Assembly (NCBI GenBank): GCA_007376145.1
Contig: VMFP01000004.1
Location: forward strand, 70,988-134,987
DNA from: Parcubacteria group bacterium Gr01-1014_38
GTDB taxonomy: Bacteria > Patescibacteriota > Andersenbacteria > UBA10190 > CAIZMI01
Length of the DNA: 64,000 nt
Reading direction: 5' to 3'
Part shown: positions 1 to 64,000 of the stretch, one piece after another
How the letters are laid out: every line of letters starts with the position of its first letter
How positions within the stretch are numbered: the stretch's first letter is position 1
Position numbers and translations under genes: made by a program
The notes under the pieces: model-generated
What the model was told of the DNA's origin: nothing
What the model saw: only the letters and a program-made list of their open reading frames with translations
The model's database searches: none

Positions 1-994
1 CATCTTGCGTTCCTCCAGATCGGAAGAGAAGAGCGGTTCGCGTACGTCGGAGGAGAAGCCGCAGCACGCCGAAAACTGCGAAGAGGCTCACCCACCACGA
101 TGATGCTTTTACAAGTCGTGGGAGAACGGCCTGCTGCGGGTCCTCCCGCACATCCTTCTGAAGAGCGGCGGGATGTTTCCAGAGCGTGGTCCACCCGGTA
201 ATGTCGAGCAGGCTGTACACGCGTGACGGCATATCCCGCAGGCGTGTTCCGTACCCGCAGTCTTCGAGGCAGCGAAAATATGTGGGATTCCACAGCTTGC
301 CGAATGTCTTCGTAGCGAGCACAAGCCAGGGCGACATACAGAGAATCGTCACCCCGCCGATCGCGAGAACCGTCCGCCAGGGAACACGAAGACGAAGAAG
401 TGGGAGAAGAACGACCAGCGCGAGCATGCTCTCATAGCGTGTAAGCGCAAGCGCAGCGAAAATGACGCCTGTGATCACGACCCAGGCACGCGTCTTCCGC
501 ACGGACACCGCACAGAAGTTTGCCAGACTAAGAAGAAAGAGAAACGTGGTATCGGCAAGCTCGCGGATCCCGTTGCCGAGAAGCACCGGATGCACAAGAC
601 CGACAAACAGCAGAAGCGCAAACGGAAGCGACGCAAGTTTCAAACGTCTTCCGATGGCATACAGAACGACCGGCGTCAGCATATACGCGAGCACACTGAT
701 GGTGCGGGCAACGGCAACCGGATCGTCAGAAAACGTGCGGCCGAGAAGGATGAGGACGGAATACAGCGGGAGCCGTTTCTCATCGCTGGGAAAGGTTCCC
801 TGCGCGAGAAAATCCGCCATGACAATAAAATTGAAGGTGTCGCCCGCCGGCATGACGCGCGATCGCGCCGCAAATGTTCCGGCAGCTGCAGCAGCCACCA
901 GAAAGAGCGCAATCCCGATGCAGATATCGCGCACCCATGCCGGTTGCCAGCGACGCGGATCCGCTACGCGGATGAGCACATCCGATGGTGTCAT
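1..994 (-). CDS. GT-C fold membrane glycosyltransferase, ArnT/PMT_2-like (5' part only; gene continues beyond window start)
   Basis: My own minus-strand translation from ATG at 994-992: MTPSDVLIRVADPRRWQPAWVRDICIGIALFLVAAAAAGTFAA...FPSDEKRLPLYSVLIL.... It has multiple hydrophobic helices and the first-loop DE motif typical of ArnT/PMT_2 proteins. It is absent from the ORF track because no stop lies within the window. Its ATG overlaps the stop of the upstream gene (ATGA). Confidence 0.5.
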   Translation of the reverse strand, partial: MTPSDVLIRVADPRRWQPAWVRDICIGIALFLVAAAAAGTFAARSRVMPAGDTFNFIVMADFLAQGTFPSDEKRLPLYSVLILLGRTFSDDPVAVARTISVLAYMLTPVVLYAIGRRLKLASLPFALLLFVGLVHPVLLGNGIRELADTTFLFLLSLANFCAVSVRKTRAWVVITGVIFAALALTRYESMLALVVLLPLLRLRVPWRTVLAIGGVTILCMSPWLVLATKTFGKLWNPTYFRCLEDCGYGTRLRDMPSRVYSLLDITGWTTLWKHPAALQKDVREDPQQAVLPRLVKASSWWVSLFAVFGVLRLLLRRTRTALLFRSGGTQD

Positions 995-3387
995 GCTTCC
1001 GTGAGGTGAAACGCGCGTCTGGCGCGCCACATCCACAAAGAGAGTCCAAGCGTACTTCCAAGACTTACCAGACCGGAAAGAAGCACGGCGGGCGGTGCAT
1101 AGCGGAGATGAACGGTGACCTGTCCGGCTGGTACCGGCACGGCGGTGAGAAACATATACGCGCGCTGCGGTGCTACTGCTTTTCCGTTGACCGTCGCACG
1201 AAAACCCGGATAGGAGAGTTGAGAGAACAGCAATGCACCATCCGCGGGGACCGTTCCCGAAACTCTCCATACTCCCGGAGCCGGAGAAACACTGTCGAGG
1301 CGAACATCGGACTGCAGCGCGCGCACATGGGCAACACGCTCCGGAAGTTCTTCCGGTGAAGGATCAGCAATCACTGTATCGGTAAACGAAACGCGCGGCA
1401 ACGGGTTTGGCACCGCATGAATGAACACATGCGTCACGTAGTCCGGTCGCCACTCCAGGTGACGAGCTTTCTGCAGCAATCCCGAGAAAAACCCGTAGAC
1501 CTCGAAGGAGCCGGGAAATGGATCCCACGGAATGTCCGTGAGGAGAGGAAGAGATGGAACGGGCTTTGCGGCCAACAGATACTCCACACCGGTCAGTTGA
1601 AGGAAGCGAAGAAAGAACGGTGAAAATGTTCCTGTTTCCCACGGCTGAACGGCGGCGATCGTCGGCTGGCTCTGAATCCCCGGCAGAAACCACCCCAGTT
1701 CTGCAGGGCCAACAACTGCGAGGTTGTATGCCGGCGCAAGAAAGTCCAAGCATGGTCCCGGCCACATCGCAACATCGGGAAGACAGAACACACGCGTGGG
1801 GCGATCGCGTTCCCCGAACTGTTCGCGTACGAACTGAAATTGCGGCATGCGCGTGCGCTCAATTTTCCCCGCCTTGGGAATCGTGAATTCAGACCAGGAA
1901 AGCCCGCGAGCAGGATCGCTTCGAGCCTCTTGAATACGCTCCGGCTTCCAGATGGCAGTCAGGCCGAACGCTGCGAATAACACGACGCCTCCCGCTCCCC
2001 ACGCAATGCCGCGCGTCCGCCGATGCAGTACAAGTGATTGCAGCCGCGGAAACGAGAGACGGCGTATACCCCACCGAAGCACACGTCCAGAGCACCGCAG
2101 AATGGCATCAATACCCACACCGGAAAATATCGTGAGCGGCATCAGCAAGATCGCACCAACGACCGGAAAGACCCCGGCATGATCAAACAACGGAAAGCAA
2201 CACCACGCGATGTTGAAGAACAGCCCGCGAACAAAGAGATTTGCCAGCAGCAGAAACAAGACGCTGTGATGAACGGCAAGAGTGGAGCGGCGCCATGAGG
2301 AAACAACAAGCGCAGCACTCATGCCAACAAAAGCGAGGAGAACAAATGATTCCTTTGGCGCGTACGGAACGCCAAAGTACGCTGGCGACGATTGTTCCGG
2401 AAGAAGACGCTTCCCGAGCGGCCCGGTGAGCGTCACGCGGAAAAATTCTTGCGCGGTGAGATCACGAATGCGCCATCCGCCGACCGGATTCCATCGCCCT
2501 TCCCCCACACGACCGGTGAGGCGTGACTTCTCTCCCTGCGCGCGCGCGAGTTCGACTGACGCGACATGTTCCGGAGCGACCACCAGAAAGGCAACGAGCA
2601 GGCAGACCGTACCCCCGAAAAGAAGACGCACAATTGGCCGCCACGTGCGTTGTGCCGCATGACGAATAACCTCCACCATCGCGAGAATCGTCGCGCCGAG
2701 AAGGGCAACCACGGCGACCGTCGGCACATTGATCATCAGAAAGGCTACGGGAATACCCGCGAGCGCTGCGTCTCGCACTGCGCGCGTCTTCAAAAACTGC
2801 ATGAGCATTGCCCAGAACCACGGAAGCCACGCGTAGGCAATCGCATAGGTCACATGAATCTCGAAGCCGAAGCGGCGAAAGACCCAGGGATTGAAGATGA
2901 ATGGAACAGCCGCAAGCAGCGCGCCCGGGACGGATACGCCGGCGCGCCGCACAAGAAGATACGCCCCGACGGCACCAACCACCATGTGCGCAATAACAAG
3001 AACCGTGACGCCTGTTGCGGCGTCACGAACGAAAAGCGTCAGGGTGGTCAGCGGAGAAAAATATGCAACATAGGGATTGGCGAGCGTGGGCAATCCAACG
3101 CCCAGCGTATTCATCCAGAGCGGTGCTTGGCCTGCCCGAATGCTGTCTTGGTAAGCGCCAACGTACGGCTCGAGGATGGCGTTCGCCGTCGCCTGCGTGA
3201 GCGTTTCCGTACGCGGATTCACCACATGAAGAAAAAATCCGGCGATGAGTGCGGCGAGTGCCAACAGAACAATCCATTCACGTCGCATATATTGCCAAAA
3301 CGGAACCAGAAGGAGCGTAAACAGCACCCACGGAACAAGCAGTACCGTTCCTAGGAGAAGGTGATCAAGCAGCTGCATCCACCACAT
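991..3387 (-). CDS. YfhO-family polytopic membrane protein (putative lipid-linked-sugar dependent glycosyltransferase)
   Basis: 798-aa ORF with many TM segments. The first extracytoplasmic loop reads ...PYVGAYQDSIRAGQAPLWMNTLGVGLPTLANP..., the conserved YfhO pattern Y..G.PLW...G.G.P. It lies next to a GT2 polyprenol-P sugar synthase gene. Confidence 0.65.
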   Translation of the reverse strand: MWWMQLLDHLLLGTVLLVPWVLFTLLLVPFWQYMRREWIVLLALAALIAGFFLHVVNPRTETLTQATANAILEPYVGAYQDSIRAGQAPLWMNTLGVGLPTLANPYVAYFSPLTTLTLFVRDAATGVTVLVIAHMVVGAVGAYLLVRRAGVSVPGALLAAVPFIFNPWVFRRFGFEIHVTYAIAYAWLPWFWAMLMQFLKTRAVRDAALAGIPVAFLMINVPTVAVVALLGATILAMVEVIRHAAQRTWRPIVRLLFGGTVCLLVAFLVVAPEHVASVELARAQGEKSRLTGRVGEGRWNPVGGWRIRDLTAQEFFRVTLTGPLGKRLLPEQSSPAYFGVPYAPKESFVLLAFVGMSAALVVSSWRRSTLAVHHSVLFLLLANLFVRGLFFNIAWCCFPLFDHAGVFPVVGAILLMPLTIFSGVGIDAILRCSGRVLRWGIRRLSFPRLQSLVLHRRTRGIAWGAGGVVLFAAFGLTAIWKPERIQEARSDPARGLSWSEFTIPKAGKIERTRMPQFQFVREQFGERDRPTRVFCLPDVAMWPGPCLDFLAPAYNLAVVGPAELGWFLPGIQSQPTIAAVQPWETGTFSPFFLRFLQLTGVEYLLAAKPVPSLPLLTDIPWDPFPGSFEVYGFFSGLLQKARHLEWRPDYVTHVFIHAVPNPLPRVSFTDTVIADPSPEELPERVAHVRALQSDVRLDSVSPAPGVWRVSGTVPADGALLFSQLSYPGFRATVNGKAVAPQRAYMFLTAVPVPAGQVTVHLRYAPPAVLLSGLVSLGSTLGLSLWMWRARRAFHLTEA

Positions 3388-3402
3388 CGCCGCGCGCCGC
3401 TT

Positions 3403-4155
3403 CTAGTGGCGTACCGTTTCCCTTCCCCGCACAGCATCTCGAACGGGCATGCGGAGCGGTAGAGCTGCCTCACGCTGCGCGCGCCCGAGCGTTTCGAGAC
3501 GAAGGCGAACAAGGTATGCCAAATTCTCCCATCCGTGACGGAAGGGCCGGAGTGTGCTTTCTCCACGTCGAAGAGCGTACGGAATATGCGTTTCCCCAAA
3601 TGCGCCGCCGGCAAGTACCACCTTCAGTTTGAATTCTTCCGAAAACGGCATGCTGGGCTGTGTGGGACGAATGACATCCAACAATTCCCGACGAAACACC
3701 CACATACCGGATTGCGTGTCTTGCACGCGCGCCCCAAAAAGAACGCGCGCAGCGCCGGTCAGAAGATGATTCCCGAGTCTGCGGATCCGTGGCATTGCCT
3801 TTCCCTGCAAGGGAAACCTGGAACCGGAAAGACAATCAAGATTTCGATCGAGAAACTCGTTCACAAGGCGCGGCGTGTGTTCTATAGGATATTGTCCATC
3901 ACCATCCATGGTGACAAGAATGTTCGCTCTCGCAGCACGGAATCCTGCTTGATACGCGCGCCCATACCCCGGCTCTTTCTCAAACACGACATGCGCTCCA
4001 TGCGCTCGCGCAATTTCCGCGGTTTGATCTGTCGAATTGTTGTCGACAACAATCACTTCATCCACCGAAGACGGCACCCGCGAAAAGAGACTTTCCAACC
4101 CCCGCTCTTCGTTGTGGCAGGGGATGACAATGCCGATCGTGTTCCCGCGGATCAC
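3403..4155 (-). CDS. GT2 glycosyltransferase, polyprenol-phosphate sugar synthase type (Dpm1/GtrB/ArnC-like)
   Basis: N-terminus IGIVIPCHNEE...VIVVDNNSTD...MDGDGQYP carries the GT-A DxD and DGD motifs. Length is 250 aa. Confidence 0.8.
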   Translation of the reverse strand: MIRGNTIGIVIPCHNEERGLESLFSRVPSSVDEVIVVDNNSTDQTAEIARAHGAHVVFEKEPGYGRAYQAGFRAARANILVTMDGDGQYPIEHTPRLVNEFLDRNLDCLSGSRFPLQGKAMPRIRRLGNHLLTGAARVLFGARVQDTQSGMWVFRRELLDVIRPTQPSMPFSEEFKLKVVLAGGAFGETHIPYALRRGESTLRPFRHGWENLAYLVRLRLETLGRAQREAALPLRMPVRDAVRGRETVRH

Positions 4156-4280
4156 GGTGGCACTCTATCGTATTTCCCAAATTCTCAAAAGCAGAAGTTT
4201 ACGTCGCGGCGTGCACGCGGTCAAGGCAAGCGCGTTCCGCGTGCGCAAGAAGACGAGTAAACCCTGATCCCTGATCCGAG

Positions 4281-4309
4281 TTGACTGCCGAAAAGAGACA
4301 CCGTAGGGT
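4281..4309 (+). promoter_or_regulatory. candidate sigma70-like promoter upstream of methyltransferase 4448
   Basis: TTGACT, a 17-nt spacer, then TAGGGT, in the divergent intergenic region. A tandem CCTGATC CCTGATC repeat sits just upstream. Confidence 0.2.
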
Positions 4310-4447
4310 ACAGGATACGTTCTTATGCCGTCGCCGAGTGTACTCCAGCGACCGAACCTTCTGGCATGCCGAGGTTGAGAGAGGCGGCTGTTCCGGCGGA
4401 CGCAGATACTCGAAAGTTGTAACCATTTTGGAAGAAATCAAGGAGAC

Positions 4448-5207
4448 GATGGGTGCGACATCTGCGATGACCCGGAAGCAGACCGCCGTACTGTACGACG
4501 ACCTTTTTGATCGCTTTGATGAAGGGGCATTCGCCTTCGCGGTAAAGGAATCAGAACGGTATTACGCCCTTCCGGACGTTCGAGGAAAGCGCTGCCTGGA
4601 TGTGGAGGGTGGTGCAGGAGCCTTCATCTCTCGTCTCTTCCAGGCGGGCGCTCTCGAAGTGCACGGGGTGGATATCGGCGAAAAAAACTGTGTAAGCGTC
4701 CTTCACTGGAATAAACCATGGAAGGATCGGCTCGTCGTGAAGCAGGGCTCGGTAGAGTCCTTGGAGTATCCCGACGGGTTTTTCGACTTCGTGCACAGTG
4801 GCGGTGTCGTCCATCACCTTGTGCAGCCGGAGCAAGGATTCGAAGAACTCGCGCGTGTCACGAAACCGGGCGGGCTCACGGTCATCGGCGTGTATGGTCG
4901 TGGCGGGCTCATGCCATTCACCATTTCGGTTCTCCGACGCATCGCCTCTCTTCTTCCCTACTCGCTGGTGTCACGTGTCGTCTCCTGGTTTTTCTCGAAT
5001 CCGTACAGTCAATATCTTGTGTTGGACTTTCTCTACGTGCCTATTGTGCACCGGTACCGCGAAGAAGACATCCGACGATGGTATGAAGATGCGGGATACA
5101 CAGACATCACGCGTTCGAGACTTCACGCGCGATACACGTATGGATCCCTCTCCGCCCACCTCTTCCATGGAGAGGGATACATCACCCTCCAAGGAAGAAA
5201 GCGTTAG
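4448..5207 (+). CDS. class I SAM-dependent methyltransferase
   Basis: Motif I KRCLDVEGGAGAFISRLFQAG. The start at 4448 is preceded by AAGGAG spaced 6 nt upstream. The listed ORF (4281) is extended on its 5' side. Confidence 0.6.
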
Positions 5208-5240
5208 CGGCGTTCCCGCGCACGAAACCTTACGCGCACC

Positions 5241-5789
5241 TTACTCGAACGGCGTGATCTCTGATAAGAGCGGCTGATGCGTATCTTTTTCCGAAACAAT
5301 GAACGGCTCGTTTCCCCACTGAATCCCTAGACTTGGGTCGTTAAAACGCAGGCCGCCTTCACACTCTGGCTTGTAGGGAGCGGTCAGTTTGTACTGCACG
5401 AGCGTGTCGTCTTCTAATGACAGAAACCCGTGAGCGAATCCTTCGGGCATCCATACTATTTTCTTGTTGCTGCCCAGAAGGAATGCGTCCCACTGACCAT
5501 ACGTCGGCGAGGATTTTCTTATATCCACCACTACGTCTTTTATGCTTCCTTGTATGACGCGCACGAGTTTTCCCTGGGCGTACGGTGGTTTTTGGAAGTG
5601 AAGCCCCCGGATGACATTCTTGTGCGATACTGACTCATCATCCTGAACAAACTGCGACGGTATTCCTATGCGTTCAAAATACTCTTTGTTGTAGCTTTCC
5701 AGGAAGTATCCCCGTTCATCCGCATAACTCCGTATGTCAATCTGAAACACTCCCTTCAGCCGTGATTCTTTCACCGAAAACTTTTCTTT
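5241..5789 (-). CDS. rmlC: dTDP-4-keto-6-deoxyhexose 3,5-(or 5-)epimerase, RmlC-family cupin
   Basis: ...VIRGLHFQKPPYAQGKLVRVIQGSIKDVVVDIR...WMPEGFAHGF... are hallmark RmlC motifs. The gene lies in the lower-GC block. Confidence 0.75.
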   Translation of the reverse strand, partial: KEKFSVKESRLKGVFQIDIRSYADERGYFLESYNKEYFERIGIPSQFVQDDESVSHKNVIRGLHFQKPPYAQGKLVRVIQGSIKDVVVDIRKSSPTYGQWDAFLLGSNKKIVWMPEGFAHGFLSLEDDTLVQYKLTAPYKPECEGGLRFNDPSLGIQWGNEPFIVSEKDTHQPLLSEITPFE

Positions 5790-5811
5790 CATACACAAAT
5801 GTCCCTGAATG

Positions 5812-6780
5812 TTACTCTACTTCCTTGAGCAGCACGCGTCTTCCCTCTCTGGCTGACACCCGTAAACATTCCATGACCCGTGCCTGCGATACGAGTCCGT
5901 TGTACTCCAAGGGCTTGCCGATCTTCTCAATAAAGTTTCTGAATGCTAGGTCAAACTGGTTTGCGCTTTCCGCATCAATCACTGCTTCGTTCCCTTGGGT
6001 GCTCACGGTGATGTGAGGCCGTACCTCTGGAGGTATGCCGTACGCTCTCCCGACATGAATTTTTCCCTTTGTTCCGATGACCGAATACGTACTCTGGTAG
6101 ACATGGTTGAACCCGAAGAATCCCGTTGCCGTTCTTCCCCTGTCAAATTCCATCAGGAAACTCCCTTCGGTATCGACGTGCGCGTCCCCGCTGAACAGCG
6201 TGCAGGTCGCGGCTCTTGGCTCTCCTGAAAGCATTTTTCTTGCCATGAATACGAGGTACCCTCCCGCGTCATTGAGTGCCCCTCCCCCCAGCTCACTCTT
6301 GTACCGTATGTTATCACCCGCGAATGGGGAGTAGCAGTAGAAAGAACTGAAATGTCTTGTTTCTCCGATGTCTCCGTTTCTCGTCACGGACACAACCTTT
6401 TCGTGCTGGGGGTGGTGGTCGACCACGTAATTTTCGACCAGCAACACGCCGTGTTCCCTGCATGTCTTCACCATGCTTTTCACTTCTTCGTATGATCCCG
6501 CCAACGCTTTCTCGCACAGCACATGCTTCCCTGCCCTTGCCGCTTTCTCGACCCATTCTTTGTGCAGTCCAACGGGGAGGGGAATATACACTGCGTCAAT
6601 ATCATTCCTTTGGAGAAGCGAATCATAACTCTCATGATCGCACCCATATTCTTGAGCCCACTCCTTCCCTTTTTGGCCTCGGCTCGCCAGGGCGACAAGA
6701 CTTGCGGTTCTTTGTATTGAACCAATCGCATACTTCCTTGCTATACTTGCGCACCCGAGGACGCCGAATCGTACACGCAT
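5812..6780 (-). CDS. Gfo/Idh/MocA-family NAD(P) sugar oxidoreductase (candidate NDP-hexose 3-ketoreductase, KijD10/TylC1-like)
   Basis: N-terminal Rossmann segment MRVRFGVLGCASIARKYAIGS. The family call rests on the overall Gfo/Idh/MocA pattern. The gene sits between a C-methyltransferase and an epimerase in the cassette. Confidence 0.7.
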   Translation of the reverse strand: MRVRFGVLGCASIARKYAIGSIQRTASLVALASRGQKGKEWAQEYGCDHESYDSLLQRNDIDAVYIPLPVGLHKEWVEKAARAGKHVLCEKALAGSYEEVKSMVKTCREHGVLLVENYVVDHHPQHEKVVSVTRNGDIGETRHFSSFYCYSPFAGDNIRYKSELGGGALNDAGGYLVFMARKMLSGEPRAATCTLFSGDAHVDTEGSFLMEFDRGRTATGFFGFNHVYQSTYSVIGTKGKIHVGRAYGIPPEVRPHITVSTQGNEAVIDAESANQFDLAFRNFIEKIGKPLEYNGLVSQARVMECLRVSAREGRRVLLKEVE

Positions 6781-6782
6781 TT

Positions 6783-8051
6783 TTACACTGGAACCCTCTC
6801 GATGACTCTGGGTTTTGGAATAGCGATGAGGTATTTGCCCCCCGCCTCGCTGAAATGTTTTGTCTTCCGCATGATTTCGTCAGCAAAATTCCAGGCCAGG
6901 ATGAGTAGGTAATTCGGCGGCTCTTCTGCCAGACGATCGCTGGAGACGATCGGAATGTTTGTTCCCGCATAGATGAGGCCGTGCTTGTCCTTCGTGTCAT
7001 CGACAATGTACGGCAGGTCTTGTTCCGTCAGGCGGCAATAGTTCACGAATGTGTTTCCTTTCACCGGCGCTCCGTAGCCTGCAATTGTTTCTCCGCGAGC
7101 GTGTACACGGTCAATGCATTCTCGTGTTTCCTTGCGTATCACTGCGGCATTTCGTTCCAGTTGTAGATAGCTTTCGGGATTGAGCAGCCCGTTTTCTCTC
7201 TCCTGCCGCAGATATCCTTCTACGACATCTTCCTGTACGGGCATGCGTTTGTTGCTGCTCTTCACTGCCGTTACTCGGATGCTTCCGCCATGGATGTTTG
7301 CGAATTCTTCCACGTTGCTGATGTTCATATCATGCATCGAGAACAGCCGTTCAAGCGGACTGACCAGGTAGTACGAGTGGTGTTCATGGAGGATGGTGTC
7401 GAATTCTTTGTGTTGGAGAAGATTCTTTGCGTAGCTTGCTTCCATCACGAAGACTCCATCATCGGACATGGCTTTTTTCGCTCCTTCAATGAACCCGTGA
7501 ACGCCATCGATGTGAGCGAACACATTTGTTGCGGTCACCACATCCATTGTTCCTTTTCTGCGCACGACTTCTTCCGCACTCTGGCTGTCCCAGAATGCGC
7601 AGATGGTCTCTATTCCTTCAGCTCTCGCTTTCTCAACGAGTTTTTCCGCAGGATCAACTCCGATGCACTCATAGCCCTGCTTCCTGAATTCTTTAAGCAG
7701 GCATCCGTCATTACTTGCGATGTCCAGGACTTTCAGTCCTTCCTGTCCGCCGAATAATTCTTTGAGGCTTCCCGCCATCCGGTAACAATGTTCCTGGAAC
7801 GTTTTCGATACGGATGAATTATAGGGATAGCTTGATGAGAACAAGTATGCTGGCTTAACGATGACTCCCAGCTGTGACAGCCCGCAGTCTCTACACAGGT
7901 TCACTGATAAAGGGATTTTTTTGTCGTGCTCCTCTCCCGGCTTCTTAAAAGCCGTTGCGACAGGCATCTCACCAAAGTCGATGTACTTCAGAAGATTCCG
8001 GGAATCACAAATTCTGCAGCTCGTCCGCTCCCAATACATGTTCGCATTCAT
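6783..8051 (-). CDS. NDP-hexose C-methyltransferase (TylC3/NovU/CloU family) with N-terminal Cys4 Zn ribbon
   Basis: The N-terminus has CRICDS...CRDCG. The SAM motif is LKVLDIASNDGCLL and the C-terminal domain ends ...YLLILAWNFADEIM. It is a paralog of the ORF at 61993-63282. The start may be 8051 or 8039. Confidence 0.75.
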   Translation of the reverse strand: MNANMYWERTSCRICDSRNLLKYIDFGEMPVATAFKKPGEEHDKKIPLSVNLCRDCGLSQLGVIVKPAYLFSSSYPYNSSVSKTFQEHCYRMAGSLKELFGGQEGLKVLDIASNDGCLLKEFRKQGYECIGVDPAEKLVEKARAEGIETICAFWDSQSAEEVVRRKGTMDVVTATNVFAHIDGVHGFIEGAKKAMSDDGVFVMEASYAKNLLQHKEFDTILHEHHSYYLVSPLERLFSMHDMNISNVEEFANIHGGSIRVTAVKSSNKRMPVQEDVVEGYLRQERENGLLNPESYLQLERNAAVIRKETRECIDRVHARGETIAGYGAPVKGNTFVNYCRLTEQDLPYIVDDTKDKHGLIYAGTNIPIVSSDRLAEEPPNYLLILAWNFADEIMRKTKHFSEAGGKYLIAIPKPRVIERVPV

Positions 8052-8062
8052 AGAGAACTTCT

Positions 8063-8084
8063 GTATGCTAGGATCCTAGCATAC
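8063..8084. promoter_or_regulatory. perfect 22-bp palindrome GTATGCTAGGATCCTAGCATAC between divergent start codons (candidate operator or RBS-sequestering hairpin)
   Basis: The reverse complement is identical to the sequence itself. It ends one nucleotide before the ATG of the 2,3-dehydratase (8085) and lies 12-24 nt from the divergent C-methyltransferase start. Confidence 0.4.
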
Positions 8085-9518: not shown

Positions 9519-9527
9519 AAACCGAAA

Positions 9528-16112: not shown

Positions 16113-16119
16113 GCCAGGA

Positions 16120-17835: not shown

Positions 17836-17902
17836 CCGACCCCCGCTCTGCTCGCCACACATCCTCGTCCAACCAGTGCAAAAGGTCTTGGCCCAGAGAC
17901 GC

Positions 17903-49172: not shown

Positions 49173-49333
49173 AAGGGGAAAGTCATCGTCAGCCGCGAAG
49201 GGACCGATAGTTTGACTCCCAAACTCCATGTACCCGCATCGTGGGTAAATGTCGCACCCTGCCGCTGCACCCAGACAGCGGAAGCTTCGCTGCCTGTTCC
49301 GTTTATTCACACGGTGCTGGTGCCTTTGACGAA

Positions 49334-57047: not shown

Positions 57048-57055
57048 GGAACACC

Positions 57056-58120
57056 ATGTCGCGGACTCCGTCACGAATCCTGCTGAAGCATGTCGGGAAC
57101 CTTGGGGACCATCTCTTCCTCGTCGGTGCGCTCCTCGAAGGGGTGGCACGGGTATGGCCGCACGCTACCGTGACGCTCGTGACCGCCTGGGGGTACAAAG
57201 ATCGGCAGGGACGGTGGGGGAAACGGAATCAGGACGGGTACGGCATTGCCCTGATGAAAGAAAACCCCCACGTTGATCACCTCGTTCACTGGAGTGATGC
57301 TCTGTGTTCTCCGGAGGGACGCATCTGCGTGGAAGAAGGGAAACGCTTTCCCACCTGGAATCGCGCGTACTTTGAGCACGTCAAGCCGACCTACGACATC
57401 GTGGCCGAGCTGGAATTTGGACTCCAGATTGAGGAGAACCCTCTCGAGCGCATCGCAGCGGCCGCAGGGCTCCCCTACGTGTCCATCGGACCGTACCCCT
57501 TCTACGGATCGCCGCAGGACGGGGACGTTGGCCGACAGGTGGCCGACCGTTTCCCGCGACCACGCGTTGTGTTCCTGGAAGGGTTAAACAGCACGACCAT
57601 GCGCGGGTGGGATCCGCGGAAAGTTACTGCTCTCGCGCAGCGCTTCCGGGACGTTGGCGTCACACCGCTCTGGTGGGGCGCATCGTTCACACCGCTGTTC
57701 CGCGGTCGAAAACTCACCCTGCGAGAGAACATTGCCCTCCTCGGCCAGTGCGATCTCGCCATTGGCGTCCTTGGCGCACCGATGCACTTTGCGGCCGCCG
57801 CCGGCGTCCAAACTCTGTGCCTGTATGGTGCCCAGTTCTACGCTCGTGCCGCGCCGGGATTCTTCTTCAACCAGACCATTCCAGACAGCCGCCGGCACCA
57901 CAGCACCGTGTTTGGTCCGACGTGTGATGAACCGTGCGCCTTAAAACGGGTATTGCCGTGCAAAAATCTCACCGGTGAGGCCCGGATTACCACGGGCTTT
58001 CGAAGCTGGCAGGCCCCCGGGCGCCAACACGACAAGTCTTGTATTGCCACCATTGCTGCCGAGACGGTCTTCGCAACCGCAGCGGAGGCTCTGGAGCGTC
58101 GAGGGCTCTGGCCGAAATAA
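57056..58120 (+). CDS. GT9-family glycosyltransferase (heptosyltransferase RfaF/WaaC-like)
   Basis: N-terminal ILLKHVGNLGDHLFLVGALLE and C-terminal ...LGQCDLAIGVLGAPMHFAAAAGVQTLCLYG. Confidence 0.65.
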   Translation: MSRTPSRILLKHVGNLGDHLFLVGALLEGVARVWPHATVTLVTAWGYKDRQGRWGKRNQDGYGIALMKENPHVDHLVHWSDALCSPEGRICVEEGKRFPTWNRAYFEHVKPTYDIVAELEFGLQIEENPLERIAAAAGLPYVSIGPYPFYGSPQDGDVGRQVADRFPRPRVVFLEGLNSTTMRGWDPRKVTALAQRFRDVGVTPLWWGASFTPLFRGRKLTLRENIALLGQCDLAIGVLGAPMHFAAAAGVQTLCLYGAQFYARAAPGFFFNQTIPDSRRHHSTVFGPTCDEPCALKRVLPCKNLTGEARITTGFRSWQAPGRQHDKSCIATIAAETVFATAAEALERRGLWPK

Positions 58121-58127: not shown

Positions 58128-58844
58128 ATGCACAGCGTCGTCATCATCCCCACATACAATGAGCGGGAAAACATTCTCTCGCTCCTCGACGCATTGGAAC
58201 GTCGGTGCGGACCCGAGGTCTCCTTCCTCGTCGTTGATGATTCGTCCCCCGACGGGACGGGAAACCTCGTGCACCAGCGTGCGGTGAACGATCCGAGAGT
58301 TCGACTGTTCTCACGACCGAAGAAGGAGGGCTTGGGTCCGGCCTACACCGCGGCGTTCGAACATGTCCTCACCGCATCGGGCGATCCGGTTCCAGAAAGC
58401 ATTGTGCAGATGGATGCCGATTTTTCCCATCATCCCGACGATGTCCCCCGCCTTCTCGCGACCCTCGAACACGCCGATCTGGTGGTCGGCTCGCGGTACT
58501 GTCCGAGCGGTTCCGTGGCCAATTGGAACTGGCGTCGGCGCTTCTTGAGTCGGGTGGCAAACGAGTATGCTCGCCTCCTCACGCGAGTTTCCGTTCGGGA
58601 TCTCACGGCAGGGTTCTGCGCGTGGCGGGCAGACGTGCTCCGGCGTGTCGCGCCAAGCACCATCCGCGCCGATGGGTACGGGTACCTTCTCGCCATGAAA
58701 GTACGGGCGGCGCGGCTCGGCACGCGCATTGCGGAAGTCCCCATCATCTTCCGTGAACGCCGAGGCGGCGTGTCCAAAATTAGCTCCCACGTCATCGGCG
58801 AAGCGGCGTTGCTGGTCCTGCGCTTGGCGATTCGACGGTGGTGA
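58128..58844 (+). CDS. GT2 polyprenol-phosphate sugar synthase (Dpm1/Ppm1-like)
   Basis: MHSVVIIPTYNERENI...FLVVDDSSPDGT...MDADFSHHP. Confidence 0.8.
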   Translation: MHSVVIIPTYNERENILSLLDALERRCGPEVSFLVVDDSSPDGTGNLVHQRAVNDPRVRLFSRPKKEGLGPAYTAAFEHVLTASGDPVPESIVQMDADFSHHPDDVPRLLATLEHADLVVGSRYCPSGSVANWNWRRRFLSRVANEYARLLTRVSVRDLTAGFCAWRADVLRRVAPSTIRADGYGYLLAMKVRAARLGTRIAEVPIIFRERRGGVSKISSHVIGEAALLVLRLAIRRW

Positions 58845-61255
58845 CGTTGGTCTCTCCGATGAACCGCGCGTGGGATCTCCTCGTCCTCGCACTCGTTGCG
58901 GTTGCACTGCTGACCCCCTACACCGTCTCATCGTTTCTCCTCGCGGGAGACATCCGCGATCTCTACCTCCCGATCGAGGATTTCTTTCGCGCCGAGATGG
59001 CCGAAGGACGCGTGCCAAGCTGGGACCCTGATACGGCCTTAGGATTTCCGGTTCTCGCCTCCGCGCAAACGGGATTCTGGTATCCTCCGCTCTTCCTGCT
59101 CCGCCCCTTCCTTCCTCCCGAATATCTGTACGCCGTGACCTACCTTCTCCACGGCCTGGTCCTGGCGCTGGGCATGTACTCCTATGCGCGTTCCCTCGGT
59201 CTCTCGCGCGCGGGGTCAATGCTCACCGCACTCGCATGTACCGGAAGCGGGTTTACGGTCGGACACTTCACGCACGCCAATATTGTTTTTGGAATCGCCT
59301 GGCTTCCCTGGGTGCTCCTCGTCTCTGACGCCCTGGCCGCCTCGCTTCGACCCCGGCTTCTTGTCCTCCTAAGCATCCTCCTCGCGCTCACCGCGCTCCC
59401 CGGTCATTTCCACATCGCCGCGATCATCGCTGCGCTCAGCGCATGCCGCTTTCTCTTTCAGCTCCGCGTACGGCAGCCGGGCGTCCCGGCTTCGCACACC
59501 TTCTGGACATTCGGAGCGCTCTTTCTCCCGGTTCTGGTCGGCATGCTGGCACTCACGGCAGCGCAGCTCTTCCCCACACTCGAACTCGTTCGCGAGTCGA
59601 CGCGCGGTCCCGGTGGAGGATTTGATCTTGCGCGCGCCAATCAGCACTCCTTTCCACCGTGGCAAGCCATCACGTTCTTCCTTCCTGCCTTCTTCGGCTT
59701 CCCCGACCTGTCCGAATACTGGGGAACGCGCCCCCAAATCGAAATGGCCGCCTGGATCGGAACACTCCCGTTCCTCTTCGCCTTGGTCGGCATCGGTTCG
59801 CTTCGTGCACGCACGCGGGAGCGAGTGTCCCCGAACTTCTGGGTGATCCTCGCGCTCGTCGGGTTCCTCTTCGCGCTCGGCCGGTGGTCGCCTCTCCGTC
59901 TCCTGGGCCTGGAACCAACGTTGGGGATCTTTTCCTCACCAGCGCGGTACCTGGTGCTCACCCAGTGGTCTCTGGCACTCCTCGCAGGCATCGGCTTTGA
60001 CCGCGTGCAACGCCAGCAACGCGCAGGGCGGCTGAGCGGACTGTTTGGGATTGGTGCAGCGCTCGCTGTGGGAGGTGGATTCGTCCTCCTCAAGACCGCA
60101 CCAGACACGCTTCGTCGCCTCGGTGCTCTTGCTATCGAGCAGGTCATTTTGGGAAAGCCGGGGCATGTGCTCTCCAAGACGCAGTACCTCGAAAAACTGG
60201 ATTATCTCCTGGAACGCGTGGGTACCTGGGGCTTCAATCTCAAGAACCCGCTCATTCTTCTGTCCACCGTTCTTCTGTTGTTCGGGGGGATCTGGCTCGT
60301 TCGCTCCGCGCGCCGACCGAGAAATGCAGCTCCGAGTCCGCGGAGCCTCCTGCTGCGTGCTTCTCTCGTGCTCGGGGCGACGGCCGTCGAGCTCCTGGCG
60401 ATGGCGTGGCAGGCGCATCCGCGCGTTGCCTGGGCCGACGTGCGGAAAGAATCTCCTGTGACCCAGGTAATTCGGGATCGTCCACGGGGGCGGCTCTACG
60501 TCGTCCACCCACAAGGCGACACCGGGCTGTACTTCGCGAATCCCACCACCATCAATCGAGAAGAACATGAGCGACTCCTCCGCGATCTCGCCGTCGCCAA
60601 CATCTTCACCCGGAGCGGGATTCCCGGCATCGAGTGGACAGCATCACTCGACTTGGCGCGGGCATCTCATATTCTCTCGCGCGCGCGCGATGACCAGGGA
60701 CGACCGGTGAACGAGAATCTCCTTGATCGCCTCGGCGTCCGCTATGTCGCGGGGAGTACGCGAACACCGGCGCTGCACCTTCCGCTACCCGCGCGCGGGA
60801 TTCTCAACTTCGAAAGCGCGGAGCAGGCCACGGTGCGCGTCTGGGAGCGCCCGACAGCTCGGCCGCGTGTCGAGCTTCTCACTGCCATGCCGCAGGAAAT
60901 TACCGAGCCGCTGCCGCCGACGGCGGGAACAGCGACCATCGTTTCGGAAAACCCGCACCACCTCGCCATCAGAGCCGAGAACCGAACCGGACATCCCGCC
61001 GCACTGGTGCTGCGTGATTCGTTCTATCCAGGCTGGCAGGCAACGCTTGATGGCGTATCGGTTCCGATCGCGCGCGCGGAGAGCGTTTTCCGCGGGGTAC
61101 TGATCCCGCCGGGAACGCACACGCTGATGTTTCGATACCAACCACGGGCGCTGTACGCCGGCATTGTGGTATCGAGTATCGTCCTCATGGCGCTCGGCGG
61201 AATGCTCCTCCGCCCAGCACTACTCCGTTCCACGAACGGAGCGGCGCACGCGTGA
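58838..61255 (+). CDS. YfhO-family polytopic membrane protein
   Basis: ...DIRDLYLPIEDFFRAEMAEGRVPSWDPDTALGFPVLASAQ... is the YfhO first-loop pattern. It is 805 aa with many TM helices and a C-terminal extracytoplasmic domain. Confidence 0.65.
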   Translation: MVTLVSPMNRAWDLLVLALVAVALLTPYTVSSFLLAGDIRDLYLPIEDFFRAEMAEGRVPSWDPDTALGFPVLASAQTGFWYPPLFLLRPFLPPEYLYAVTYLLHGLVLALGMYSYARSLGLSRAGSMLTALACTGSGFTVGHFTHANIVFGIAWLPWVLLVSDALAASLRPRLLVLLSILLALTALPGHFHIAAIIAALSACRFLFQLRVRQPGVPASHTFWTFGALFLPVLVGMLALTAAQLFPTLELVRESTRGPGGGFDLARANQHSFPPWQAITFFLPAFFGFPDLSEYWGTRPQIEMAAWIGTLPFLFALVGIGSLRARTRERVSPNFWVILALVGFLFALGRWSPLRLLGLEPTLGIFSSPARYLVLTQWSLALLAGIGFDRVQRQQRAGRLSGLFGIGAALAVGGGFVLLKTAPDTLRRLGALAIEQVILGKPGHVLSKTQYLEKLDYLLERVGTWGFNLKNPLILLSTVLLLFGGIWLVRSARRPRNAAPSPRSLLLRASLVLGATAVELLAMAWQAHPRVAWADVRKESPVTQVIRDRPRGRLYVVHPQGDTGLYFANPTTINREEHERLLRDLAVANIFTRSGIPGIEWTASLDLARASHILSRARDDQGRPVNENLLDRLGVRYVAGSTRTPALHLPLPARGILNFESAEQATVRVWERPTARPRVELLTAMPQEITEPLPPTAGTATIVSENPHHLAIRAENRTGHPAALVLRDSFYPGWQATLDGVSVPIARAESVFRGVLIPPGTHTLMFRYQPRALYAGIVVSSIVLMALGGMLLRPALLRSTNGAAHA

Positions 61256-61600
61256 AAAAGCCAGGCGGGGCGACGCCTGGCTAGACGAAGGTTGTGGGAC
61301 GTTTAGGCGAGGTAGACCACAATGCCGCAGGCTCCTGCCCGCCCACACCGGTCCCAATCCGACCATGAAACACGCCATGCCTGGCCCACTCGGCAGCGGC
61401 CTGTTCATTCCAACCGTGCATGCTTGAACCTCCCGCCGCGTCGTACGCGGACAATTCGAGAACGTTGAGAAAGAACGAAACGGAGATTCACCATACAGGA
61501 TCGGCGACTCCGCGTCAACACCGTTGCCAACAGATGGAGCGTGGGCTATGCTGCCATCATGGATCAGCGAGCCAAGCAGGAAGCTCAGACCCACGCCCAG

Positions 61601-61996
61601 ATGGCCGACGACGTGCTCCGGAAGTCCGAGATCGTCGAGAACAGCGCCCGCGGGATTATCGAGAAACTGGTCGAGGGAGAGTTCCATAGTGTCCTCCGCA
61701 TTACGTCGAAGGCAGGAACCGTCCGCGCGAACCACTATCATAAGCGGGACTCTCATCTCTGCTACCTCGTCCGCGGGAAAATCGAGTACGTGTATCGCGA
61801 TGCGCTCGACGAACGCGCACCGCTCCAGCGCATGATCATCGAACCCGGGCAGCTCTTCTACAGCCCACCGATGGTGGCGCACGCGATGGTGTTCCTCGAG
61901 GATTCGGAGTTCTACTGCTTCACGACGAGCCCCCGCCACACGCAGAAGGACTACGAGGACGACGTCGTCCGGGTCACGCTTGTCCCGTCTTCGTGA
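61601..61996 (+). CDS. small cupin, FdtA/QdtA (WxcM)-like NDP-4-keto-6-deoxyhexose 3,4-ketoisomerase
   Basis: From MADDVL: ...SARGIIEKL...GTVRANHYHKRDSHLCYLVRGKIEY...SPPMVAHAMVFLE. It has the HxH metal/active-site pair and the WH.M-like motif. The upstream in-frame ATGs at 61541 and 61559 are alternatives. Confidence 0.5.
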   Translation: MADDVLRKSEIVENSARGIIEKLVEGEFHSVLRITSKAGTVRANHYHKRDSHLCYLVRGKIEYVYRDALDERAPLQRMIIEPGQLFYSPPMVAHAMVFLEDSEFYCFTTSPRHTQKDYEDDVVRVTLVPSS

Positions 61997-63282
61997 GCAT
62001 GCAGGCACCCTCGATCCTTCACACATCGCTTCGGACCAAGAGCATCATCACGAAGACCACCGCCTGCCGACTGTGCGGAAGTCAGCGGCGTACCGATGTG
62101 TGGTCGTTCGGGGAAACACCGCTGGCGAACGCCTACCGCACGGTGGAAGAACTCGGGCAGCCCGAGTTCGTGGCGCCACTCACGGTCGCACGCTGTGAAG
62201 CATGCCAGCTCGTCCAGCTGCGAGAAACGGTCGATCCAACGGTTCTTTTCCGGGACTATCTCTACGTGTCGTCAACCTCACCGACGTTCGTCGCGCACTT
62301 CGACGCGTACGCCGCGCATCTCACGGAGCGTTTCCACCTCCGTGCGGGCACCTTCGTCATCGATATCGGGAGTAACGATGGGATTCTGTTGAAACCCCTC
62401 CGCGCCCGTGGCGTTCGCGCACTCGGGGTGGAGCCAGTCGCACACATCGCGGACAGAGCGAATGCGGAAGGCGCCGAAACTCTCCCGGCGTTCTTCTCCC
62501 GAAGTCTCGCCAGGGAGATTCGCTCGCGGTACGGACCGGCGACGGTGATCACCGCAAATAATGTCTTTGCACACATGCCGGATCTGGACGACGCTCTCCA
62601 AGGCGTGCAGGAACTCCTCGCAGAGGACGGCGTGTGTGCCTTCGAAGTGCAGTACCTTGGCGATCTGCTGGAGAAGAACCTGTTTGACATCGTGTACCAC
62701 GAACACCTCTGCTACTATCACGTCGCACCGCTCGTTCCCTTCTTTGCTCGGCACGGCTTTGAACTCTTCGATGTCCAACGCGTTCCCGTCCACGGTGGTT
62801 CTATCCGTGTTTTCGTCCAGCGAGCGAACGGGCCGCATCCCACGGAGACCCGGATCCAGGAACTGTTGGATGCGGAACGCGCTCAAGGCCTGCATACCCT
62901 CGAACCGTACCGGGCGTTCTGGCAACGGGTGCAAACGAATAAAGAGTCCTTGGTCCGTCTTCTCTCTCACCTCCGCGCCTCGGGGAAACGCCTTGCTGGC
63001 TACGGAGCACCGGCCAAAGCCACGACGCTACTGCAGACCTTCGGTATCGGTCCCGAAACGCTCGAGTACATCGTGGATGACGACACGAAGTTCAAGCAGG
63101 GCCGCTATATGCCGGGGTCGCACATTCCCATCGTGGCGCCAGAGCGTCTCTACCGCGACCGGCCGGACGCCTGCCTCATCCTCGCGTGGAATTTCGCCGA
63201 ACCGCTCATGCACACGCACCGACGCTTCACACAACAAGGCGGACGTTTTATTGTTCCCGTACCCGAACCCCGGATCGTGTGA
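61993..63282 (+). CDS. NDP-hexose C-methyltransferase (TylC3/NovU family), second paralog
   Basis: CRLCGS...CEACQ Zn ribbon, FVIDIGSNDGILL SAM motif, and C-terminus ACLILAWNFAEPLM. It is co-linear with the ORF at 6783-8051. Confidence 0.75.
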   Translation: MSMQAPSILHTSLRTKSIITKTTACRLCGSQRRTDVWSFGETPLANAYRTVEELGQPEFVAPLTVARCEACQLVQLRETVDPTVLFRDYLYVSSTSPTFVAHFDAYAAHLTERFHLRAGTFVIDIGSNDGILLKPLRARGVRALGVEPVAHIADRANAEGAETLPAFFSRSLAREIRSRYGPATVITANNVFAHMPDLDDALQGVQELLAEDGVCAFEVQYLGDLLEKNLFDIVYHEHLCYYHVAPLVPFFARHGFELFDVQRVPVHGGSIRVFVQRANGPHPTETRIQELLDAERAQGLHTLEPYRAFWQRVQTNKESLVRLLSHLRASGKRLAGYGAPAKATTLLQTFGIGPETLEYIVDDDTKFKQGRYMPGSHIPIVAPERLYRDRPDACLILAWNFAEPLMHTHRRFTQQGGRFIVPVPEPRIV

Positions 63283-63287
63283 GCGAT

Positions 63288-64000
63288 ATGCGACCCCCGC
63301 CCGTCATCCAAGAAGATCTGGCGGCGATTGCCGAGACCATCGGCAGCGCCGCGCAGGAACTCGCCGGGAAGACGGTGCTGATCAGCGGTGGCGCCGGGTT
63401 CCTCGGACGGTACTTCCTCGGCGTCTTCGCGCACCTGAACCGGCGAACGCTTGGCCAGCCGTGCCGCGTCATCTCCGCTGACAACTACATCACCGGAGAT
63501 CGGGACGGTGCGTTCGGGGTCAACGATGATCCGAACGTGCTCTCGCTCTGGGCGGATGTGACACTGCCGCTTCCCGTCCGCGAACCCGTTGACTACATCA
63601 TTCACGCCGCCGGCCTTGCTTCGCCCGTCTACTACCAACGGTACCCGCTCGAAACGATTGAGAGCGCCGTCCTAGGCGCCAAAAATCTTCTCGAGTTGGG
63701 CAGGCGAAACGCGCTCAAGAGTTTCCTGCTTTTCAGCTCGAGCGAAATCTACGGCGACCCCGACCCGCGCTCCGTCCCCACGCCGGAAACGTACTGTGGG
63801 AACGTCTCGAGCGTCGGTCCCCGCGCGTGCTACGACGAGTCGAAGCGGCTGGCGGAAACGCTTTCGATCGTCTACCACCAGCAATTCGGCGTGCCCGTGA
63901 AGATTGTCCGACCGTTCAACGTGTACGGTCCGGGAATGCGGCCGGACGACCGTCGCGTCATGCCGACGTTCGGGCTGCGCACGCTCCGCGGCGAGTCGCT
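63288..64000 (+). CDS. NAD-dependent SDR epimerase/dehydratase, UDP-glucuronate decarboxylase (UXS/ArnA-C)-like; 3' end outside window
   Basis: Manual translation: TVLISGGAGFLGRYF...LFSSSEIYGDPDPRSVPTPETYCGNVSSVGPRACYDESKRLAETL. The SSEIYGDP and CYDESKR motifs are characteristic of UXS-type decarboxylases. Confidence 0.65.
   Translation, partial: MRPPPVIQEDLAAIAETIGSAAQELAGKTVLISGGAGFLGRYFLGVFAHLNRRTLGQPCRVISADNYITGDRDGAFGVNDDPNVLSLWADVTLPLPVREPVDYIIHAAGLASPVYYQRYPLETIESAVLGAKNLLELGRRNALKSFLLFSSSEIYGDPDPRSVPTPETYCGNVSSVGPRACYDESKRLAETLSIVYHQQFGVPVKIVRPFNVYGPGMRPDDRRVMPTFGLRTLRGES

Follow-up and report, generated by a model that had tools for sequence, protein, structure and literature searches.

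Introduction

Described multi-component systems for extracytoplasmic glycosylation include CsbB-GtcA-YfhO, GtlA-GtcA-GtlB and CsdAB/CD/EF of the Firmicutes, in which a GT2 synthase of a C55-P-sugar adjoins a GT-C transferase of the YfhO or PMT_2 type, the GT-C partners are poorly conserved in sequence and the cluster can lack a flippase gene; the flippase is often encoded elsewhere, and a Wzx-type flippase can substitute for it (PMC8035078). The model organisms covered by that review carry at most three GT-A/GT-C pairs each, dispersed over the genome, with three pairs listed for the whole genome of Bacillus subtilis (PMC8035078). Here we analyze 64,000 nucleotides (the window) of contig VMFP01000004.1, positions 70,988 to 134,987, from the metagenome-assembled genome (MAG) of Parcubacteria group bacterium Gr01-1014_38. 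Its glycosyltransferase genes share the traits of the Firmicutes systems given above but differ in scale, with five GT2 and 13 GT-C genes in about 69 kb once the left flank is counted. The locus also differs in having more than two GT-C genes per GT2, no GtrA-type gene and three GT2 proteins without transmembrane (TM) helices, in interleaving its modules with rare-sugar pathways, and in its host, a Candidate Phyla Radiation (CPR) genome of about 1 Mb. We consider it likely to be a multi-component extracytoplasmic glycosylation island in a deep-branching, Andersenbacteria-like CPR genome.

Other described systems resemble parts of this island. The PgfS-PgfM1-PgfM2 system of Streptococcus mutans joins one GtrB-type synthase to two YfhO-type GT-C enzymes, and two YfhO-type proteins of the window (Y1 and Y5) match PgfM1/PgfM2 at their C-termini, but these weak matches lie far below the cutoffs, and the island mixes PMT_2- and YfhO-type genes within single operons. 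The logic of the Arn pathway is paralleled at 24160-34361, where an aminotransferase, a formyltransferase, a GT2 and an ArnT-like GT-C are encoded. In contrast to that pathway, the transaminase is WecE-type (for dTDP-4-amino-4,6-dideoxyhexose) rather than ArnB, the deformylase ArnD and also ArnE/F are absent from the island, the GT2 (G3) scores 82 bits against an ArnC cutoff of 529, and FolD and serine hydroxymethyltransferase (SHMT) genes lie in the operon. The island is predicted not to be a member of the Arn pathway, which places 4-amino-4-deoxy-L-arabinose (L-Ara4N) on lipid A, though it is Arn-like in logic.

GT-C Transferases

A Pfam scan of about 55 candidate open reading frames (ORFs), read together with the ORF list, indicated that the window's content is almost entirely glycan biosynthesis (Table 1). 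A first-pass annotation, made from the sequence alone, had counted five YfhO-type, five ArnT/PMT_2-type and one DUF2079-type polytopic proteins. These counts hold by Pfam, profile alignment with hhalign and structural models, with one PMT_2-type protein (P0) truncated at the window's left edge. Family searches were clear for PF09852 and PF00535, whereas the gathering score of PF09586 (28.5 bits) was reached by Y2 and Y5 and not by Y1, Y3 or Y4, and that of PF13231 (26.1 bits) by P1, P2 and P4 and not by P3; the remainder were placed by profile or fold. In all five YfhO-type proteins the PF09586 match was confined to the C-terminal ~70 profile positions, although nearly all Y5 homologues among the matches listed carry a precomputed PF09586 match. 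The Pfam scan gave no match for P0. NCBIfam returned marginal matches only for the GT-C proteins.

Because Pfam was thin for the YfhO group, weak for P3 and silent for P0, the fold was tested directly. The AlphaFold model of Y5 had GT-C enzymes only as its top fold matches, with AftD the best structural match. The top fold matches of the P3 model were likewise all GT-C; ArnT was the closest bacterial structure, and ALG12 and ALG9 were also among them. Pmt4 and Pmt2 were found among the GT-C fold matches of the models. The other proteins were linked by hhalign to the P3-family profile or to a Y5-family profile that was built without Y1-Y4 and matched them over the N-terminal membrane core. When solved structures were searched by sequence, Y5, P1 and the DUF2079 protein gave nothing useful and the P3-family profile gave one weak ArnT match (E 0.014). 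Y1-Y5 and P0-P4 are predicted to be GT-C-fold glycosyltransferases, Y5 and P3 by model and the eight others by profile links of 91-100%. The first-pass annotation had raised the alternative that the large membrane ORFs are unrelated transporters, and this is not what was found, GT-C enzymes being the only top fold matches. The DUF2079 protein, which matches profile positions 5-452 of 459, belongs to a family that we take to be a member of the GT-C clan.

Acidic motifs follow the first TM helix throughout most of the set. A near-invariant Asp occupies this place in the YfhO group (D38 of Y5), a DE motif stands directly after the first core helix in P1-P4 (D255/E256 is near-invariant in the P3 family), and P0 has a GD/SDE acidic loop after TM1. 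The loops that bear these motifs were net-negative (Y2 net zero), and the preceding flanking segments, where present, were mostly net-positive. This charge pattern fits outside-facing acidic motifs, as had been proposed for the DE and YfhO loop motifs from sequence.

The paralogues of the window are mutually 22-36% identical. Recent tandem duplication was rejected as their origin on this ground, and so low a mutual identity indicates that they are old. Y3 and Y4 match each other by BLASTP at E 1e-36. The N-terminal domain of Y4 matches the P3 family at 95.7% (hhalign), and this module is common to Y4, P3 and P4. The P3 family is rare, with three matches in an index of 5.8 billion proteins and 26 representatives among 1.84 billion.

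GT2 Synthases

The five GT2 synthases of Dpm1/GtrB/CsbB-like type that had been reported (G1-G5) were recovered by PF00535 (E 1e-16 to 1e-34), NCBIfam and PDB searches, and in NCBIfam the model matched best was in each case a polyprenyl-phosphate sugar synthase (Dol-P-hexose transferase, AglJ, PpgS or ArnC). Dolichyl-phosphate-mannose (Dol-P-Man) synthase (DPMS) of Pyrococcus, 5mlz, was the top solved match for four of the five, with the catalytic domain and interface helices aligned, and ArnC and GtrB came next wherever these proteins had further matches. For G4, chondroitin synthase ranked first by E-value through two short stretches in the first ~90 residues alone, whereas the longest single-stretch matches were DPMS, ArnC and GtrB. 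The QxxRW motif of processive synthases was found in none of the five, which are 238-288 aa long with 0-2 hydrophobic segments, and the best full-length relatives were Dol-P-Man synthase, ArnC and GtrB. The concern that these GT2 proteins might be processive was not borne out: G1-G5 are predicted to be non-processive, GT-A-fold GT2 synthases like Dpm1, GtrB and ArnC, and the island does not appear to be of the cellulose, chitin or hyaluronan synthase-like type.

The best solved relative links the island to the archaeal and eukaryotic systems of DPMS or AglJ with ALG/PMT enzymes, as do the ALG12 and ALG9 fold matches of P3. Unlike those systems, the island is bacterial, presumably uses an undecaprenyl-type carrier, and shows no evident acceptor logic of the oligosaccharyltransferase type.

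Each GT2 gene lies next to a GT-C gene as first described: G1 beside Y1, G3 beside P3, G4 beside Y2, G5 beside Y5, and G2 upstream of P1 and P2. G1 is the first gene of an operon that continues through Y1 and P0 to a YfhO-like gene of 834 aa in the left flank. The idea of a three-component architecture repeated many times is supported, with caveats. The GT2 and GT-C components and their adjacency were confirmed, but the GtrA-type flippase is missing and pairing is not 1:1, one GT2 gene often being followed by two or three GT-C genes. Strict co-divergence of GT2 and GT-C partners was rejected: G3 and G5 are reciprocally closest among the GT2 proteins, yet the partner of G3 is PMT_2-type and that of G5 YfhO-type.

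Two of these genes are easily misread. The annotation of the European Nucleotide Archive (ENA) contig calls an opposite-strand ORF (3586-4260, +, no Pfam match) in place of G1, which is missing there. G4 (start 37992, -) and Y2 (start 37982, +) overlap head-to-head by 11 nt, so any promoters would lie within coding sequence; the gene caller avoids this overlap by trimming five codons from the conserved N-terminus of G4.

Genomic Context and Extent of the Island

From the naming scheme and GC content, we infer that MAG Gr01-1014_38 is Y2 Bin 38 of Danczak et al. 2017 (PMC5581439), which came from groundwater of the Greene well on a 0.1 µm filter in October 2014. That bin comprises 1,028,474 bp in 25 scaffolds at 61.2% GC, is 97% complete with 0 misbin, and falls among the Andersenbacteria as a deep branch on the evidence of 16 ribosomal proteins and of rpS3 (PMC5581439). 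The GC content of the window is 60.7%, against this bin mean. Y5 and SHMT each match a protein of the MAG at 100% identity; apart from this self-match, a search for SHMT homologues was uninformative on taxonomy.

Beyond the left edge of the window (contig L004 12394-18144) lie the rest of P0, the 834-aa YfhO-like gene (hhalign 99.8% for its product) and a weak PMT_2 gene of 551 aa. DUF6580/DUF4430 genes mark the left end of the island, with unrelated genes from there on. Since GT-C genes run on past the left edge, the island measures at least 69 kb, or ~6.7% of the genome. The window is probably most of one cell-envelope glycosylation island. Its 11 GT-C genes occupy 23.75 kb of 64 kb (37% of bases), and the 13 that include the left flank take up ~28.5 kb, 2.8% of the genome; the density of GT-C genes in the window is far beyond chance.

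Synteny and Relatives

The comparative genomics that had been proposed for the GT2/GT-C pairs showed that related contigs keep the adjacency, as does a probable Chloroflexota genome for the YfhO type. Three GT2/GT-C pairings of the window recur in related contigs. In the Logan contig L009, the run from the UPF0104 gene through the PHP gene, Y4, MurJ, the 55297 protein, the ~190-aa protein, GT9, G5 and Y5 to the cupin is syntenic at 54-84% identity. In L005, from a second bin that is Andersenbacteria-like by rpS3, synteny spans Y4 to the cupin. The G5 orthologs in both contigs are 74-78% identical and adjoin Y5 orthologs.

Contig L010 keeps the DegT-G3-P3-SHMT arrangement with an additional YfhO-like gene separating G3 from P3, which indicates that modules have been recombined; the layout of one GT2 with two GT-C genes thus recurs there. 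The distant contig L011 (Logan SRR13838931, 9.2 kb) packs PMT, P3-like, P2-like and P4-like genes, a GT4 gene and three methyltransferase genes into 9 kb, and dense clustering of GT-C genes is therefore not unique to this genome. In contrast, a 5.9 Mb genome that is probably Chloroflexota (L008) has just one GT2 and YfhO pair, with a 974-aa homologue (P0063) of ~30% identity. A scan of GTDB species genomes with Y2 gave, among the matches listed, one Chloroflexota MAG at 29% identity.

Flippase Candidates

Two MOP flippases and a UPF0104 protein had been named in the window. The MurJ-family and UPF0104 assignments were upheld by strong family matches, whereas the second MOP protein, which is Wzx-like, is weak and falls under the gathering score (Table 1). 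The adjacency of Y4 and the MurJ-family gene is kept in L005 and L009. L009, a relative at 67% identity, has at positions 1-1266 a UPF0104/LPG_synthase_TM gene immediately after a GT2 gene, the two overlapping by 4 bp, and this arrangement supports a GT2-flippase partnership. Two proteins of ~1350 aa, P0098 and P0117, are natural fusions of a MOP flippase (Polysacc_synt/MatE) with a YfhO domain, a hint that MOP flippases are functionally linked to YfhO-type enzymes.

Sugar-Tailoring Modules and Remaining Genes

The gene set at 4281-9518 resembles what we take to be the TDP-mycarose-type pathways of antibiotic producers, which yield 2,6-dideoxy-3-C-methyl sugars. At 48-55% GC, this deoxysugar block together with G2 (4281-10304) lies below the genome's 61%, a difference suggestive of horizontal acquisition. 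Low GC was also found in the DegT gene (54%) and G3 (58%). In the second module the transaminase passes the WecE-type model, so that the sugar is probably a 4-formamido-4,6-dideoxyhexose. The FolD and SHMT genes stand within the glycan operon near the formyltransferase gene and may be the sole copies in the ~1 Mb genome; if so, one-carbon metabolism would be tied to sugar formylation.

The soluble 573-aa product of 45254-46975 may be a polysaccharide lyase or an epimerase-like enzyme. It had been a candidate for the fifth PMT_2-like protein and was rejected as such, being lyase-like and without a TM helix. L005 and L009 carry orthologs of the genes at 55297-58120 in matching order, and an ortholog of the cupin follows Y5 in both. 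After Y3, a 57-aa ORF (43284-43457, +) resembles the N-terminus of an S-adenosylmethionine (SAM) methyltransferase and ends in "...VLDAG*", apparently a truncated gene remnant. The ORFs 462-1004, 34375-34869, 49241-49870 and 61220-62026 were rejected as genes, since they are Arg/Ser-rich antisense frames without family matches. Rfam and tRNA scans of the window found nothing.

Table 1. Predicted features of the window, in order of position. Scores are from Pfam (PF), NCBIfam, hhalign and PDB searches. PLP, pyridoxal phosphate; NDP, nucleoside diphosphate; pLDDT, predicted local distance difference test.
Feature	Position	Strand	Assignment and evidence
P0	1-994 (cut by left edge)	-	ArnT/PMT_2-like GT-C, N-terminal 331 of 534 aa; hhalign to P3-family profile 94% and 91%; full length in contig L004
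Y1	991-3387	-	YfhO-type GT-C, 798 aa; PF09586 27.7 bits; hhalign 99.7% to Y5-family profile
G1	3403-4155	-	Dpm1-like GT2, no TM helix; PF00535 E 2e-25; best NCBIfam Dol-P-hexose transferase, 132 bits; top PDB DPMS 5mlz
Methyltransferase	4281-5207	+	SAM methyltransferase; Pfam
Epimerase	5241-5798	-	RmlC-like; Pfam
Reductase	5812-6780	-	GFO family; Pfam
C-methyltransferase	6783-8051	-	Sugar C-methyltransferase; Pfam
Dehydratase	8085-9518	+	NDP-hexose 2,3-dehydratase; Pfam
G2	9528-10304	-	Dpm1/PpgS-like GT2, C-terminal hydrophobic helices; PF00535 E 3e-16; best NCBIfam PpgS; sole PDB match DPMS
Carbamoyltransferase	10389-12173	-	NodU/CmcH-type O-carbamoyltransferase; Carbam_trans_N and Carbam_trans_C; NodU 140 bits
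P1	12358-14577	-	PMT_2-type GT-C, 739 aa, 315-aa C-terminal soluble domain; PF13231 35.4 bits; hhalign 97.8% to P3 family; HDE after TM1
P2	14583-16112	-	PMT_2/PMT-type GT-C, 509 aa; PF13231 35.8 bits, PF02366 24.4 bits; hhalign 95.9%; IDE motif
Methyltransferase	16009-16821	+	SAM methyltransferase; Pfam
Methyltransferase	16891-17970	-	SAM methyltransferase; Pfam
Methyltransferase	17903-18619	-	SAM methyltransferase; Pfam
Amidotransferase	18616-20517	-	AsnB-type; Pfam; XrtA-type amidotransferase 579 bits
Methyltransferase	20486-21424	-	SAM methyltransferase; Pfam
GT4	21358-22521	-	Pfam
Wzx-like protein	22552-24102	+	Weak MOP protein; Polysacc_synt 25.7 bits (gathering score 28.2)
4-Aminotransferase	24160-25422	-	WecE-type model 572 bits (cutoff 375); ArnB 215 bits (cutoff 631)
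Formyltransferase	25349-26272	-	Fmt/ArnA-N-like; 173 bits
GT4	26275-27504	-	Pfam
FolD	27511-28572	-	Pfam
SHMT	28473-29795	-	Pfam
P3	29952-32270	-	ArnT-like GT-C with N-terminal TM helix, beta-sandwich domain, membrane core and C-terminal domain; PF13231 16.8 bits
G3	32323-33120	-	Dpm1/ArnC-like GT2, no TM helix; PF00535 E 3e-31; best NCBIfam ArnC, 82 bits; PDB DPMS E 4e-30, then ArnC, GtrB
DegT	33117-34361	-	DegT/RfbH-like PLP enzyme; PF01041; RfbH 198 bits; first gene of DegT-G3-P3 module
P4	34496-36988	+	PMT_2-type GT-C, P3 paralogue with same N-terminal module; PF13231 32.0 bits; hhalign 100%, E 4e-65, full length; NDE motif
G4	37126-37992	-	AglJ/DPMS-like GT2, C-terminal TM segment, divergent from Y2; PF00535 E 2e-34; AglJ full-length alignment 115 bits
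Y2	37982-40951	+	YfhO-type GT-C, 989 aa; PF09586 35.3 bits; hhalign 100%
Y3	40951-43287	+	YfhO/PTPS_related-type GT-C, 778 aa, N-terminal TM helix and soluble module; PF09586 20.0 bits; hhalign 99.7%
DUF2079 protein	43509-45107 (gene caller start 43614)	+	Polytopic membrane protein; PF09852 160 bits (gathering score 28.2)
Lyase-like protein	45254-46975 (573 aa; 571 aa from 45260)	+	Soluble; weak Ulvan_lyase_N match, no obvious signal peptide; between DUF2079 and UPF0104 genes
UPF0104	46981-47934	+	UPF0104/LPG_synthase_TM "flippase-like" protein; PF03706 139.5 bits; TIGR00374 80.5 bits (cutoff 43.2)
PHP protein			Between UPF0104 gene and Y4
Y4	51057-53636	+	YfhO/PTPS_related-type GT-C, 859 aa; PF09586 27.9 bits, PF10131 21.7 bits; hhalign 99.8% to Y5 family
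MurJ	53633-55240	+	MurJ-family MOP flippase; PF03023 219.6 bits; start overlaps Y4 stop codon
55297 protein	55297-56472	+	Conserved hypothetical protein
~190-aa protein	about 56470-57047	+	One TM helix
GT9	57005-58120	+	GT9-like protein
G5	58128-58844	+	Dpm1-like GT2, 238 aa, no TM helix; PF00535 E 4e-28; PDB DPMS E 6e-27, full length
Y5	58838-61255	+	YfhO-type GT-C, 805 aa; PF09586 44.2 bits; AlphaFold model pLDDT 89.6, GT-C fold
Cupin	61541-61996	+	
C-methyltransferase	61993-63282	+	Second sugar C-methyltransferase
Epimerase/dehydratase	from near 63288 (cut by right edge)	+	NAD-dependent

Discussion

The window's gene content is consistent with a pathway in four steps. Cytoplasmic tailoring modules would make unusual nucleotide sugars, one through a 2,6-dideoxy-3-C-methyl-hexose-like pathway and another giving a 4-formamido-4,6-dideoxyhexose with its own FolD/SHMT supply of formyl-tetrahydrofolate, while carbamoylation, amidation and methylation enzymes may add further tailoring. 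Each Dpm1/ArnC/GtrB-like GT2 would then load one sugar onto polyprenyl monophosphate. The lipid-linked monosaccharides would be flipped by the MurJ-family protein (coupled to Y4), the Wzx-like protein or the UPF0104 candidate, and the 11 GT-C transferases, or 13 with the left flank, would pass the sugars to acceptors outside the membrane. One donor may serve several GT-C enzymes that use different acceptors or form different linkages.

Several observations weigh against this interpretation. We infer the whole of the island's biochemistry: the carrier lipid, the assignment of sugars to GT2 proteins, the flippase, and the acceptors, which may be wall polymer, lipid or surface protein. All five GT2 proteins score far under the NCBIfam equivalog cutoffs, so their donor sugars cannot be named, and G1, G3 and G5 have neither a TM helix nor an obvious membrane partner. 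Small membrane proteins of the GtrA/GtcA or ArnE/F type were absent from the window when hydrophobic ORFs of 40-220 aa outside known genes were searched; the MOP or UPF0104 proteins would therefore have to do the flipping, unless a gene outside the window does. An initiating phosphoglycosyltransferase, a Wzy polymerase and a ligase were not found among the scanned ORFs, which leaves the acceptor polymer undefined. Of 34 aligned YfhO-type sequences, all but Y1 have the near-invariant Asp after TM1, and Y1 may be an inactive, non-catalytic or mechanistically divergent GT-C. The DUF2079 protein showed no hhalign link to either GT-C profile and is placed by Pfam alone.

The same gene content can be read as construction rather than decoration, the GT-C battery polymerizing an entire wall glycan on the outer side of the membrane from few polyprenyl-P-monosaccharides. 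Mycobacteria provide the model. Their Emb, Aft and Mpt enzymes use decaprenyl-P-arabinose and polyprenyl-P-mannose, and, as in the island, many GT-C enzymes (Emb/Aft/Mpt/PimE) draw on few donors made by soluble, Dpm1-like synthases such as Ppm1. The ratio of 11-13 GT-C genes to five GT2 genes implies shared donors, G1, G3 and G5 are soluble in the manner of Ppm1/DPM1-type synthases, Y5 is structurally closest to AftD, and the missing Wzy, ligase and initiating transferase would all agree with this. However, the two GT4 proteins and the Wzx-like protein suggest that a conventional cytoplasm-built unit is made as well, searches of Y5, P1 and the DUF2079 protein against solved structures detected no relation to Emb or Aft at the sequence level, the sugars differ, and the genes of the mycobacterial battery are spread over a 4.4 Mb genome. 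We regard a mycobacteria-like construction role as doubtful. Protein O-glycosylation of the actinobacterial Pmt or streptococcal Pgf kind, with pilins, S-layer proteins or Ser/Thr-rich disordered regions as the main acceptors, appears unlikely. It draws on the PMT/PMT_2 family matches, on Pmt4 and Pmt2 among the top fold matches, on the PgfM1/PgfM2 matches, which are the sole NCBIfam matches of the Y1 and Y5 C-termini, and on the Pgf layout of one GtrB-type synthase for two YfhO-type enzymes (PMC11092751). Yet the PgfM matches are very weak (E ~0.01) and cover the C-terminal helix only, the island offers no candidate acceptor protein save the ~190-aa single-TM protein, and dideoxy, C-methyl and formamido sugar chemistry is more typical of polysaccharide antigens.

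It is very unlikely that the island is not CPR DNA at all but a mis-binned or recently transferred segment of Chloroflexota type. The nearest YfhO homologues outside the close clade (~30% identity) do carry Chloroflexota names (Promineifilum, Caldilinea, Anaerolineales), the block at 4281-10304 departs from the genome in GC content, and the window holds no phylogenetic marker gene. But ~30% identity is too low for recent transfer, the GC content of the window as a whole matches that of a nearly complete bin with no misbin, and the island sits on a 136 kb contig. Two further assemblies, one from ENA (90.8 kb contig) and one from Logan, also contain the locus, and a syntenic locus at 60% identity occurs in the second bin, also Andersenbacteria by rpS3. 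Were the island mis-binned, the context of a reduced genome would be wrong.

For the preferred reading, an extracytoplasmic glycosylation island in an Andersenbacteria-like genome, the component families and the system logic are already known; it departs from described systems in its scale, its excess of GT-C genes, its lack of GtrA, its rare-sugar modules and rare GT-C families, and its CPR host. The first-pass annotation knew of no locus of comparable modular repetition. This fits the literature searched, in which no description of a comparable locus, or of YfhO, GT-C or DUF2079 proteins in CPR, was found, though it is not proved by that search. A broader reading is possible, and we offer it tentatively. 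Most of the surface glycan of this lineage would be built outside the membrane by the GT-C battery from few polyprenyl-P rare sugars, including antibiotic-pathway types such as 2,6-dideoxy-3-C-methyl hexoses, and reshuffling of GT2, GT-C and sugar modules among strains would diversify the surface, whether to attach to hosts or to evade phages. Part of the battery would consist of undescribed GT-C families, among them the very rare P3/P4 family, whose N-terminal beta-sandwich module would also be grafted onto YfhO-type cores.

A large part of bacterial diversity belongs to the CPR (Patescibacteria), which have genomes of ~1 Mb and presumably live attached to other cells; to our knowledge, their cell-surface chemistry is essentially undescribed. 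Density and host lineage are what set this island apart. For glycoengineering it offers divergent GT-C enzymes and Dpm1-like synthases in a compact set, and its MurJ-family and UPF0104 proteins are candidate non-GtrA flippases for lipid-linked monosaccharides, a step poorly understood across bacteria. It may also provide genomic evidence for "antibiotic-type" deoxysugars on a cell surface. An outlay of ~7% of the genome on one glycosylation island, and of ~3% on GT-C genes, implies that an elaborate sugar coat, assembled externally, is central to the lifestyle of this organism.

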